Shown here: one piece after another, positions 5,317 through 6,885 of the stretch
Layout of the letters: each line of letters begins with the position of its first letter
Numbering within the stretch: position 1 is the first letter of the stretch
DNA from: an uncultured bacterium
Lineage (GTDB): Bacteria; Chlamydiota; Chlamydiia; Chlamydiales; SLFE01
Direction of reading: 5' to 3'
Assembly (NCBI GenBank): GCA_964629645.1
Contig: CAZVSU010000023.1
Coordinates: 1 to 32,836, forward strand
Length of the DNA: 32,836 bases
Made by a program: the position numbers and the translations under genes
The notes under the pieces: generated by a model
Database searches by the model: none
Seen by the model: only the letters and a program-made list of their open reading frames with translations
What the model was told of the DNA's origin: nothing

Positions 5317-6885
5317 TTGGATCCGCGGCTGCGGCCAGTCATTTTTATGATTATGATCTCATCGCCACAAACTCAATCTTGTTCTCAACTGATGGATTTC
5401 GATGTGAACATCGAATTACAACAGCGATTGCGTGCAGGGATTGAATCGAGCTGGATGAAAAGCGTTGTCCTCCATTCTCATCTACCGGACCTGCAGCACG
5501 CCTGGATATTCGCACTCGCCTATATCGATGATGCACACTTCCATGAAACGATCACAGACGTCGTTTCAAAAGCATTAAAAGGAACCGTCGAACCCGAGCT
5601 TATCCTACGGTCCGACAGTTGTGAAGAGGTCTTATTTTTAAATAATAGTGTCCGCATTTCCCTTCGCCCTCTTATGCCGAAGTTGGAATCCATTGTTCAG
5701 TTTTATTCACATGTAAATTTTGAAGATAAAAACAACGAGCAGGCGCTCCTGTCTGCCTGCCGTGAAATTTTTGCACAGTTGAATGCCTTCTGCTCCTCTC
5801 GTCGCGCCTACCTGACCAGAAAAATAATTTATCACACTTGTCTTAAAGCGCAGGAGATATTTCCTAAATATTTGACAAATTCGACAAAGTCTCTTTTTTT
5901 TCTCACCGGAGTGACACTATCCCTCTACGAAATTTCGTCTTACGACAAGACAAAGAAAAGAAAGCATCAAAGCAAAAATTTCAAATTGATCTCCAAAATT
6001 ATACAGACCACTGTCAACAGTCCTGACACCGTCAGCCCGAATATGGTGCGATTCAAGCCGGTGATCGAATCGCTGAGAGACATAGTCGATGAGATGGTAT
6101 GGGATTTGAGCACGCAAGACCCAAGGCAAAAGAAGATTCCCTACAAAGATATCGCCGAAGCCATCACATTTATGGGTCAAGTTTTCTGTTCCGACTTAAA
6201 GAATTCAGAATCGTTAACCGCTGATGATACGGCTCGGTCCCAATCCTTCCATCGAGAAGCGATTATTTCATTCGGCAAAAAAAAATTGAAACGAAAAAAA
6301 CAGATTGTCGCAGCACTTCATCATGAAGCGCTCACCGACACCCAGTTTGATGTGTTCAATTTCTACGACTTAGTGGAAACGCAAACAGACAAATGGACAC
6401 ATAAAGATGTGATCTACTGGCTCTCTCTTCAAAATGATTATGACGAATTACGTCCACTTTTTGAGGAATCAAAAATCGATGGTAAAAAATTCGGTCAACT
6501 CGATATCAAAAATATCGAAGATCAGTCCCTACCTTACGGCCTAAGCCTTAGGCTCAATAAGAAAAGGACTCAGCTTATCGACACCTTATATTTTTGGCAT
6601 CAAAAACAATTTAATGACGTGCGGAATTGCCTGTATAAAACCCCATTCGCTAAGTGGTCGACATGGGATATTGCGGTGTGGCTTTATTCTTTGAATATGA
6701 GTGATGGATATGTCAACAGAGTCATCATGAAAAAATTAAAAGGGCAAACTCTTTTTCCTTCATTTCTCAAAGACATGCCTTCAAGAAGAAAACATATTTT
6801 GTCGACATTGCAGATCGATACGACCACAGAAAAGAAAAAACTGTTACGCGCGCTTAGCGATGTCAAGTATGTGAATAAATATTGA
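5317..6885 (+). CDS. Hypothetical protein with two tandem C-terminal SAM (sterile alpha motif)-like domains. Candidate eukaryotic-like effector.
   Basis: 522 aa. The listed start is TTG; ATG codons at 5347 and 5353 are alternatives. Residues about 395-460 (WTHKDVIYWLSLQNDYDELRPLFEESKIDGKKFGQLDIKNIEDQSLPYGLSLRLNKKRTQLIDTLYFW) and about 470-520 (WSTWDIAVWLYSLNMSDGYVNRVIMKKLKGQTLFPSFLKDMPSRRKHILSTLQ) fit the SAM pattern W..dV..WL.sl.l..Y...F.e..idG..L..Lt..dL..lGi....hr..il..i. The N-terminal ~390 aa have no motif I recognise. Only 16 nt downstream of the flotillin stop. Confidence 0.6.
   Translation: MDPRLRPVIFMIMISSPQTQSCSQLMDFDVNIELQQRLRAGIESSWMKSVVLHSHLPDLQHAWIFALAYIDDAHFHETITDVVSKALKGTVEPELILRSDSCEEVLFLNNSVRISLRPLMPKLESIVQFYSHVNFEDKNNEQALLSACREIFAQLNAFCSSRRAYLTRKIIYHTCLKAQEIFPKYLTNSTKSLFFLTGVTLSLYEISSYDKTKKRKHQSKNFKLISKIIQTTVNSPDTVSPNMVRFKPVIESLRDIVDEMVWDLSTQDPRQKKIPYKDIAEAITFMGQVFCSDLKNSESLTADDTARSQSFHREAIISFGKKKLKRKKQIVAALHHEALTDTQFDVFNFYDLVETQTDKWTHKDVIYWLSLQNDYDELRPLFEESKIDGKKFGQLDIKNIEDQSLPYGLSLRLNKKRTQLIDTLYFWHQKQFNDVRNCLYKTPFAKWSTWDIAVWLYSLNMSDGYVNRVIMKKLKGQTLFPSFLKDMPSRRKHILSTLQIDTTTEKKKLLRALSDVKYVNKY

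Follow-up and report, generated by a model that had tools for sequence, protein, structure and literature searches.

A gene in the window (the whole stretch of 32,836 nucleotides that was analysed) encodes a soluble, lineage-specific protein in which a eukaryote-type RasGAP domain is followed by two SAM-like domains. On balance, we favour the reading that this RasGAP-SAM-SAM protein is a secreted effector of an environmental chlamydia, which would act as a GAP on a host Ras-family GTPase with R88 as its candidate arginine finger. The family to which it belongs is exceedingly small, with four members (P0001–P0004) found among ~15 billion proteins.

The gene, its start codon and selection

On the forward strand, positions 5317–6885 form an open reading frame of 522 codons when counted from a TTG, and the sequence-only reading, made before the present analysis, had taken all of it to be translated. 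The frame stood, while the start did not. TTG 5317 is not a start codon in P0002 (locus L001), the sole close relative (76% amino acid identity), and in L001 a 1-nt indel disrupts the frame upstream of ATG 5347; the conserved start of the coding sequence is thus ATG 5347, with ATG 5392 as an alternative. As judged from this comparison of sequences, the 5′ extension is probably untranslated.

5317..5346, forward strand: 5′ extension of the mechanically called open reading frame, with a TTG start; not conserved as coding in L001
5347..6885, forward strand: RasGAP-SAM-SAM coding sequence, 512 aa plus stop; ATG 5347 is conserved in P0002/L001
5392, forward strand: alternative ATG start, giving 497 aa; the start used by P0001 (NCBI-derived copy)

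It follows from either ATG that the gap after the flotillin stop codon (5300) is 46 or 91 nt, and not the 16 nt given earlier. The frame is uninterrupted and has bacterial genes on both sides in four independent assemblies (the window and three Logan runs). Because dN/dS between the window gene and P0002 is 0.22 at a dS of 0.60, the open reading frame is a real gene under purifying selection. The encoded protein lacks a hydrophobic segment (maximum 19-residue Kyte-Doolittle score 0.86), its N-terminus is polar and Ser/Gln-rich, and the GC content of the gene (0.411) is the lowest among the genes of the window. In NCBIfam, neither this protein and its homologues nor the NfeD-like and SH2 proteins encoded nearby matched any family.

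A RasGAP domain of the neurofibromin type

The N-terminal ~390 aa had previously been left unassigned. We found that aa ~26–285 are a RasGAP domain whose nearest counterparts are of the neurofibromin/IRA type, as identified by profile comparison with PDB, Foldseek and hhalign, and this identification changes the nature of the protein.

5422..6201, forward strand: RasGAP-like (neurofibromin GAP-related-domain-like) all-helical domain, aa 26–285 of the 512-aa protein
5971..6018, forward strand: SKNFKLISKIIQTTVN, equivalent of NF1 'GLKLMSKILQSIAN', the helix after the variable loop, from aligned columns

The family profile matched the GAP-related domain of NF1 over ~125 residues (E-values 4e-10 to 9.5e-10), a match that spans the FP...FLRF..PA and KLMSKILQ..AN blocks, and NF1 was the only RasGAP of PDB detected by sequence. 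With hhalign, the alignment to NF1 covered 240 columns (probability 95%, E = 2.2e-8). This signal depends on the depth of the family, as a two-sequence profile gave no match in PDB and the match appeared once the two distant homologues had been added. Structure prediction followed the same course: AlphaFold with a two-sequence alignment gave an unusable model (pLDDT 39.6), while with four sequences (overall pLDDT 49.4) the GAP part was usable and the SAM part was not. Searched with Foldseek, the predicted model returned RasGAPs as its best 10 matches (10/10), which supports a RasGAP helical fold. Pfam RasGAP (PF00616, gathering threshold 28.3 bits) found nothing in the window protein or in P0002, and only weak matches below that cut-off in P0003 (20.4–22.5 bits) and P0004 (16.2 bits).

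Compared with the NF1/IRA RasGAPs (PF00616), the family retains, in collinear order, the FP...S..FL.. and K[LI][LMI]..[IL]Q...N motifs and the helix that follows, and the N, Q and N of the SKNFKLISKIIQTTVN block are invariant across all four members. A conserved arginine of the family may also lie where the arginine-finger loop of those proteins sits. On the other hand, the window protein is bacterial, the stretch from the putative finger to the FLR block is ~16–22 residues shorter than in NF1, its Pfam score is sub-threshold, and its GAP activity is putative. It also differs from the usual RasGAPs in its partner domains, with two SAM domains following the GAP domain in place of C2, PH or Sec14 domains.

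A candidate arginine finger and a replaced FLR arginine

In RasGAPs, the loop that precedes helix alpha2c carries the arginine finger (p120GAP R789, NF1 R1276), while the arginine of the FLR motif (NF1 R1391, p120GAP R903) supports the finger loop and is important for full activity. The equivalents of both regions were sought in the window protein.

5593..5616, forward strand: PELILRSD, the best-conserved motif of the family; R88 (nt 5608–5610) is the candidate arginine finger
5890..5931, forward strand: SLFFLTGVTLSLYE, equivalent of the RasGAP signature 'FLRFxxPA', from the HMMER alignment to NF1 'SAMFLRFINPAIVS'

The P, E, L, I, L, R and D of PELILRSD are invariant in all four members (PELILR[S/E]D), and R88 is thus retained although the family proteins share only 21% identity overall. 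MAFFT pairs PELILRSD with NF1 QTLFRGNS and places R88 against NF1 R1276, and in the predicted model R88 would lie in a loop (79–94) four helices upstream of the FLR-equivalent helix. A low-confidence hhalign register instead pairs NF1 LFRGNS with LFLNNS of the window protein, which has no arginine. Neither a profile of the N-terminal finger region alone, run against PDB, nor Pfam on 81-aa fragments of that region found a RasGAP match, so that the register of the finger cannot be fixed by sequence. Given this disagreement among alignments, R88 is ambiguous and should be cautiously interpreted as a candidate arginine finger.

The position of the FLR arginine is occupied by T187 (nt 5905–5907) in the window protein, by T in P0002 as well, and by Q in P0003 and P0004, such that no member of the four has arginine there; the motif reads FLT or FLQ, and the PROSITE-type signature around it is likewise absent.

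One could therefore picture the protein as a pseudo-enzyme or scaffold with a RasGAP fold, in the manner of IQGAP, which would be delivered to the host and bind GTP-loaded Ras, Rap or Rho without speeding hydrolysis, its SAM tandem polymerizing the bound GTPases or tying them to host SAM proteins. We regard this as unlikely, since the best-conserved motif contains an arginine that never varies and is predicted to lie in the finger loop, which would scarcely be expected unless this residue served in catalysis or in contacts, and since by sequence the domain is nearest to neurofibromin, which is catalytically active, and not to IQGAP.

Tandem SAM-like domains at the C-terminus

The suggestion that two consecutive SAM-like modules occupy the C-terminus was borne out, as family profiles of both segments match SAM domains of PDB. 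Their placement had to be shifted: in the 522-aa numbering they lie at ~355–428 and 440–518, some 40 aa upstream of the aa ~395–460 and ~470–520 first proposed. The W..DV..WL...IDG pattern quoted in their support is literally present, at aa 360–389 of that numbering.

6379..6600, forward strand: SAM-like domain 1, aa 345–418 of the 512-aa protein; from sub-threshold Pfam matches and profile against PDB
6634..6870, forward strand: SAM-like domain 2, aa 430–508 of the 512-aa protein; from profile against PDB, and Pfam in homologues
6277..6300, forward strand: polybasic KKKLKRKK, within the linker that joins the GAP part to the SAM part; read directly from the sequence

Three Pfam families of the SAM clan fall on one stretch of segment 1 of the window protein taken alone, all below threshold: SAM_PNT at 19.4 bits (cut-off 24), SAM_1 at 17.5–18.1 bits (cut-off 23) and Ste50p SAM at 14.8 bits (cut-off 21). 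With the Pfam SAM families used (SAM_1 PF00536, SAM_2 PF07647, SAM_PNT PF02198), there was no match for segment 2 of the window protein or for either segment of P0002, while segment 2 of P0003 (27 bits) and P0004 (32.2 bits) exceeded the SAM_1 cut-off of 23. The HMM search proposed earlier was thus positive at curated thresholds only in these two homologues, and there in segment 2 only, and negative in the window protein; the outcome that would have spoken against SAM domains, namely no HMM match and no fold prediction, was strictly speaking not what we observed.

The SAM signal becomes significant at the family level, with profiles built from the four members. For segment 2 (profile A8), all 17 PDB matches at E ≤ 0.01 were SAM domains, among them liprin-beta1 (8.4e-11), the Shank3 SAM (2.9e-7 over 70 aa), Shank2, SMSr and DGK-delta. 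For segment 1 (profile A7), the matches included 1v85 (1.7e-5) and Scm (3.4e-4) and were all SAM or SAM/Pointed domains to E ~0.3, the first non-SAM match appearing at E = 0.37; only the first ~45 aa align in these matches. The two segments are also related to each other (hhalign probability 84%, E = 7.6e-6), a kinship that required profiles to reveal, as direct BLASTP between the window segments gave just a 23-aa match (E = 0.033). Across the SAM region (aa 345–512) the AlphaFold model is of low confidence (pLDDT 26–47); its predicted helices (352–361, 365–374 and 401–414; 439–448, 454–464, 478–487 and 494–509) are compatible with a SAM fold, a compact five-helix bundle of ~65–70 residues.

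The best sequence matches of these segments are eukaryotic tandem-SAM scaffolds (liprin, caskin, ANKS1B/AIDA-1, SARM1) and polymeric SAM domains (Shank3, DGK-delta, TEL/ETV6, Scm), with which the protein has in common two adjacent units of ~70 aa bearing the core pattern W..[DE]V..WL...[IL].G. Unlike known SAM domains, those of the window protein are so divergent as to fall below Pfam thresholds on their own, and the second half of segment 1 could not be aligned with them. In segment 2, both the window protein and P0002 further carry a 7-aa insertion (the PSRRKH region) that is missing from P0003 and P0004. The polybasic stretch is kept in P0002 (KRKLKRKK) and is not conserved in P0003 or P0004.

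Relationship to the nfeD–flotillin pair

The gene had been described as appended to an nfeD–flotillin operon, a description that comparison among genomes does not support.

3379–3915, forward strand: NfeD-like gene; context, the upstream half of a conserved two-gene unit
3930–5300, forward strand: flotillin/SPFH gene; context, Band_7 at 1.8e-28

Of 80 other flotillin loci, 75 have NfeD upstream of the flotillin gene, yet a relative of the RasGAP-SAM-SAM gene was found in none of the 80, and the gene downstream of flotillin differs in size and strand among them. P0003 and P0004 sit among unrelated housekeeping genes and not near flotillin. When the window is compared with its closest relative, nfeD–flotillin DNA is 99–100% identical and the RasGAP-SAM-SAM gene 82%, such that the two have diverged in a decoupled manner. 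We found no conserved gene neighbourhood linking it to nfeD–flotillin across genomes; from this comparative evidence, nfeD–flotillin is a conserved two-gene unit to which the RasGAP-SAM-SAM gene is probably not functionally tied.

These data bear directly on the idea that the protein works inside the bacterium as a co-transcribed partner of an NfeD-flotillin microdomain, recruited to rafts and using its SAM domains as oligomerization modules. The genes are on the same strand with a 46-nt gap in which a consensus scan found no promoter-like site, and the close relative has the same gene order, with three contigs in agreement. A weak hairpin with a T-run does occur at 5327–5340; terminator-like sites of this kind are present at chance frequency (4 found versus 4.6 expected). 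However, besides the lack of linkage in other genomes, the protein is without a membrane segment, and its RasGAP and SAM domains, like the SH2 domains encoded next door, point to eukaryotic targets; we thus consider this partnership very improbable.

A four-member family

Our family searches covered sets of 1.84 billion representatives and 5.8 billion clusters. When the full alignment was used to search for homologues, P0001 and P0002 were the only proteins recovered, the GAP-only alignment retrieved nothing at all, its own query proteins included, and pattern scans of metagenome contigs gave 43 matches, none of which was confirmed. P0003 and P0004 lie within contigs of 158 kb and 72 kb that carry dnaX, ybaB, ptsI, hprK, ftsK, dnaJ and lepA, and synteny with locus L017 suggests a taxonomic assignment for these contigs. 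Within the part of the literature covered, we found no paper on a eukaryote-type RasGAP domain in bacteria or on a RasGAP plus SAM architecture.

That every recognizable domain is of eukaryotic type, the GC content is below that of the neighbouring genes and the family is tiny might suggest that the gene is an artefact of assembly or binning, being either a piece of DNA from a eukaryotic host or what is left of a pseudogene in decay, but we give this almost no credence, and reject contamination or decay as effectively refuted, given the intact frame with its bacterial flanks, the purifying selection, and the embedding of P0003 and P0004 among bacterial housekeeping genes.

Neighbouring genes and host lineage

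Next to the RasGAP-SAM-SAM gene are those for a multi-SH2 protein and for a giant DUF3638 protein of 3841 aa.

6898..9663, reverse strand: 921-aa protein with SH2-like repeats; convergent neighbour, Pfam SH2 2.7e-12, syntenic in L001

The 921-aa protein contains six repeats of the G[TSA]W type, and its gene belongs to the same eukaryote-like gene cluster as the RasGAP-SAM-SAM gene. The latter is far more divergent than its housekeeping neighbours. Taken together, the four-member family, the fast divergence, the lowest GC, the SH2 and DUF3638 neighbours and the polar Ser/Gln-rich N-terminus are traits that look effector-like at the sequence level. The closest relatives of the flotillin come from Parachlamydiales/Chlamydiota MAGs (63–68% identity), and the gene is probably of chlamydial origin, as indicated by this one marker gene together with context. 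Amoeba symbionts had been named earlier as a place to look for homologues, and the flotillin relatives place the gene in a Chlamydia-like lineage of the amoeba-symbiont type.

Proposed function and comparison with known effectors

The analysis establishes that the gene is real, which domains it encodes, how rare it is and that it is not linked to flotillin; we infer that the protein may be secreted, which GTPase it might target, what its catalysis might involve and what its SAM domains might do. It would be secreted into the host cell, probably by the type III system, which is present in all Chlamydiae (PMC6925127). There its RasGAP domain may engage a host GTPase of the Ras family in the GTP-bound state, with the invariant R88 of PELILR[S/E]D promoting GTP hydrolysis, while the tandem SAM unit could serve in oligomerization or could attach the protein to SAM proteins or membranes of the host. 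Since macropinocytosis and phagocytosis are governed in amoebal hosts by Ras together with its GAPs (NF1, IqgC, C2GAP2), Ras signalling would be expected to weaken locally, at the membrane of uptake or of the vacuole; in Dictyostelium both processes are under RasGAP control (PMC4374526, PMC10806400, PMC9745196). A more specific version, which we hold tentatively and rate as doubtful, is that an environmental chlamydia injects a horizontally acquired eukaryotic NF1-type RasGAP with a polymerizing SAM tandem, which would assemble at the membrane where the host takes up material or encloses it in a vacuole. There it would switch off Ras-driven macropinocytosis or phagocytic signalling by means of a finger arginine, in the absence of the canonical FLR arginine.

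Many bacterial effectors are known to inactivate small GTPases of their hosts. Among such GAP mimics, YopE, SptP and ExoS act on Rho GTPases and Legionella LepB acts on Rab1. To our knowledge, all of the known GTPase-silencing bacterial effectors use convergent folds. The logic proposed here would be analogous, namely a delivered arginine finger that silences a host small GTPase, with Ras or Rap presumably the target family as opposed to Rho or Rab. In contrast to the unrelated folds of YopE, SptP, ExoS and LepB, however, the window protein is itself built on the eukaryotic RasGAP fold, and this argues for acquisition by gene transfer and not convergence. LepB is described as a catalytic mimic of RasGAP (Yu et al., 2013, as cited in PMC11077975).

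If the preferred reading of a secreted, R88-dependent host-Ras GAP is correct, the host pathways that chlamydiae associated with amoebae are able to manipulate would come to include Ras-family signalling, which in amoebae is the chief regulator of both macropinocytosis and phagocytosis. The family would also provide a natural experiment in RasGAP catalysis without the FLR arginine, and a clear case of inter-domain gene transfer represented by four sequences in ~15 billion; if the protein is inactive or not secreted, it would be an ordinary orphan with eukaryote-like domains.

Eukaryote-like proteins of amoeba-associated bacteria include SH2, Rab/Ras-like and ankyrin proteins in Legionella and expanded F-box/BTB/LRR families in Parachlamydiaceae (PMC7542358, PMC4209131, 10.1101/350777). 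Like them, the RasGAP-SAM-SAM protein is lineage-specific, patchy in distribution and fast-evolving, and here its gene is clustered with that for the SH2-repeat protein, such that the RasGAP-SAM-SAM, multi-SH2 and giant DUF3638 genes make up a small hypervariable eukaryote-like cluster.

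Gene, start codon and homologues

The open reading frame following flotillin is listed in the window at 5317–6885 (+), with 522 codons counted from a TTG, and its product found only two matches in a database of 5.8 billion protein clusters. One, P0001 (497 aa), is the window's own copy with the NCBI start at ATG 5392; the other, P0002 (517 aa), is a close relative from three Logan assemblies, 76–77% identical to the window protein. All three P0002 contigs share one gene order: FkbM methyltransferase, alpha/beta hydrolase, NfeD-like, flotillin, RasGAP-SAM gene, SH2 protein and giant protein. 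When the two 5' regions are aligned as DNA, the relative has ACTG in place of TTG 5317, and the two sequences differ by a 1-nt indel in the stretch from there to ATG 5347, so that the conserved frame starts at ATG 5347 (512 aa, numbering used here) at the earliest. Thus the gene does not start 16 nt after the flotillin stop (5300), as the sequence-only reading had it, but 46 nt after, or 91 nt at the NCBI start. The gene is real, and comparison with P0002 gives dN = 0.13, dS = 0.60 and dN/dS = 0.22. A sequence scan of the protein found no hydrophobic segment. Its GC content is the lowest of all window genes: 0.411 for the whole gene, falling to 0.380 within the SAM part, against 0.45–0.53 in the other genes.

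When 1.84 billion representatives were searched exhaustively with HMMER and a two-sequence profile, two more homologues appeared, both distant and full length: P0003 (527 aa, E 2.7e-9) and P0004 (630 aa, E 1.2e-7), which are collinear with the window protein at 21–22% identity. P0003 lies on a 158-kb bacterial contig amid dnaX, ybaB, ptsI and hprK genes, P0004 on a 72-kb bacterial contig amid ftsK, dnaJ, lepA and purA genes. A caspase-like Peptidase_C14 gene is convergent on the P0003 gene and overlaps its 3' end by ~30 nt (contig L084, 11554–12312, −), an arrangement repeated in a second P0003 contig (L085, 3444–4202, −); here a further eukaryote-associated domain adjoins a member of the family.

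A RasGAP-fold domain

The N-terminal ~390 aa had earlier been left unassigned. Pfam matches RasGAP weakly in P0003, and four-sequence profiles find the neurofibromin (NF1) GAP-related domain among PDB sequences, both with the full protein (E 9.5e-10) and with the GAP part (E 4e-10), in an alignment spanning 'FP...S.mFLRF.nPAiV' and 'KLmSKILQsiAN'. The PDB sequence comparison detected RasGAPs of no further subfamily. An AlphaFold model from the four-sequence alignment has pLDDT 60–91 at aa 100–260 (49.4 overall), and with it NF1 and p120RasGAP fill the Foldseek top ten against PDB at probability 1.0. On the strength of the profile match, model and Foldseek result, aa 26–285 form a domain with the RasGAP fold, and its homology is to the neurofibromin type.

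Conservation among the four sequences is strongest at PELILR[S/E]D (aa 83–90, seven invariant positions). MAFFT places this motif opposite 'QTLFRGNS' of NF1, which carries the arginine finger R1276. Over 126 residues, the NF1 GAP-related-domain sequence used for this agrees with the PDB alignment save at one (R vs I in 'PPPRIER'), and it has the correct distance of 115 from finger to FLR. The AlphaFold model puts R88 in a loop (79–94), with four helices between this loop and the FLR-equivalent helix after it, an order that matches the L1c loop and the alpha2c–alpha5c helices of the p120GAP structure. However, a low-confidence stretch of the hhalign alignment sets NF1 LFRGNS opposite window LFLNNS (aa 96–101), which holds no arginine, and neither the N-terminal profile against PDB nor Pfam anchors the finger region, so R88 is a probable arginine finger but not an established one. 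The other arginine of the catalytic site, that of the FLR motif, is absent: the window protein and P0002 have T at this position, and P0003 and P0004 have Q. Its absence would fit a GAP that is weakened or works by an altered mechanism, or else a module that only binds. The main rival to a working GAP is a non-catalytic Ras-binding scaffold.

Tandem SAM-like domains

The two C-terminal SAM-like segments lie as follows.

aa 345–418, nt 6379–6600 (+): SAM-like domain 1 (355–428 in the numbering of the 522-aa frame)
aa 430–508, nt 6634–6870 (+): SAM-like domain 2 (440–518 in the same numbering)

Two consecutive segments had been proposed from sequence; both hold at family level by profile, at sites ~40 aa upstream of those proposed. 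Taken strictly and alone, the window protein does not pass an HMM check: three SAM-clan families fall on one stretch (aa 344–392), all under their curated cut-offs (SAM_PNT 19.4 bits, cut-off 24; SAM_1 17.5, cut-off 23; Ste50p SAM 14.8, cut-off 21), while Pfam matches neither segment 2 nor either segment of P0002. P0003 (27 bits) and P0004 (32.2 bits) do pass SAM_1 (cut-off 23), at the segment aligned with window segment 2. Four-sequence profiles were run per segment against all PDB sequences. For segment 2, all 17 matches at E<=0.01 are SAM domains, led by liprin-beta1 (8.4e-11) and Shank3 (2.9e-7 over 70 residues), with Shank2, SMSr and DGK-delta among the others. Segment 1 matches 1v85 (1.7e-5), Scm (3.4e-4), then TEL/ETV6, CNK2 and STIM1, with only ~45 residues aligned and the earliest non-SAM chain at E 0.37; hhalign pairs the two segments at 84% probability (E 7.6e-6). 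From these profile matches, the homologues' SAM_1 hits and the match between segments, the tandem SAM reading is upheld at the level of the family. AlphaFold did not bear out the fold, pLDDT being <50 across the entire SAM region.

The linker joining the GAP and SAM parts contains a polybasic KKKLKRKK (window 6277–6300, +), kept in P0002 and not conserved in P0003 and P0004. It might act as a signal for nuclear localisation or as a patch that binds acidic lipids.

Relation to nfeD-flotillin

Among 185,579 species genomes, the best relatives of the flotillin are in Parachlamydiales/Chlamydiota MAGs (63–68% identity), and the organism is therefore called Chlamydia-like. An NfeD-like gene lies directly upstream of flotillin in 75 of the 80 flotillin loci compared. 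None of the 80 has a relative of the RasGAP-SAM gene, nor of the window hydrolase, methyltransferase, SH2 or giant genes, and the gene downstream of flotillin varies in size and strand. No flotillin was found near P0003 or P0004 on their 158-kb and 72-kb contigs; three genes of the P0003 contig are syntenic with one chlamydia-like flotillin locus. Between the window and L001, the contig of the closest relative, DNA identity is 98–100% over 201–5200 (nfeD 100%, flotillin 99.1%), drops to ~80% over 5400–7000, then returns to ~96%. Given its absence from the 80 loci, the variable downstream gene, the homologues elsewhere and the identity drop, the gene is, by sequence comparison, evolutionarily uncoupled from the nfeD-flotillin unit it follows rather than appended to that operon, and a flotillin-partner reading is poorly supported. 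A scan of the gap between flotillin and the gene found no promoter-like match, and its sole hairpin is of chance quality.

Divergence from L001 is mosaic across 201–17000, with an 87% patch at 1601–2000 inside the FkbM methyltransferase gene, ~96% identity over 7000–8400 and 59–99% farther on; dS ranges from 0 (nfeD) to 0.60 (RasGAP-SAM gene). This pattern suggests recombination or allele replacement between strains.

A eukaryote-like gene trio and a candidate effector

Three consecutive genes have eukaryote-type content, the RasGAP-SAM-SAM gene and two neighbours.

6898–9663 (−): SH2 protein, 921 aa (Pfam SH2 2.7e-12, aa 245–307)
9710–21235 (−): giant ORF, 3841 aa (DUF3638 36.6 bits, aa 2752–2959, sole Pfam match)

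The 921-aa gene is convergent with the RasGAP-SAM gene, with 12 nt between stop codons, and its product has six SH2-like 'G[TSA]W[LNI].' repeats (aa 187, 263, 599, 694, 784, 870); bacterial SH2 domains have been described from Legionella (PMC7542358). In the giant protein the DUF3638 match surrounds a P-loop motif, GSGKTT, and an acidic EQ-rich repeat lies near the C-terminus; the gene is syntenic in L001, yet only 77–92% identical as DNA.

The RasGAP-SAM protein is almost unique in databases, and amoeba-associated bacteria are known for eukaryote-like proteins that are lineage-specific and evolve fast (PMC4209131, PMC7542358, 10.1101/350777). All chlamydiae have a type III secretion system (PMC6925127), and the Dictyostelium RasGAPs NF1, IqgC and C2GAP2 govern how large macropinocytic and phagocytic cups become and how often they form (PMC4374526, PMC10806400, PMC9745196; also PMC7416115). 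From these points, together with the gene trio and low GC, the most economical reading we infer is that the protein would be translocated into the host and damp Ras-family signalling there, the SAM pair serving to oligomerise or dock it; its secretion, its activity and its target are putative. An artefact reading is poorly supported beside a gene found in three further assemblies. The bacterial GAP effectors YopE, SptP, ExoS and LepB differ in having folds unrelated to that of the RasGAP-SAM protein; LepB is described, in a reference cited in PMC11077975, as having a new fold and imitating RasGAP in its catalysis. A partial literature search found no paper on a bacterial RasGAP domain of eukaryote type or on a RasGAP plus SAM architecture.

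Other features of the window

1–284: tandem repeat, 3.3 copies at a period of 72 nt with 89% matches (a period of 144 nt scores as well)
21291–26978 (−): RND efflux operon with outer membrane factor (OEP 6e-38), AcrB-family pump (2e-135) and HlyD-type membrane fusion protein
27095–30772 (+): 1225-aa ORF, no Pfam match at E<=0.01

The repeat lies at the contig's extreme start, runs off the window end and on translation gives the repeated peptide QAGEPFERFFIDLCDPVVLERK. The ordinary bacterial RND efflux genes confirm the bacterial nature of the contig, and the 1225-aa ORF may be another lineage-specific large protein.
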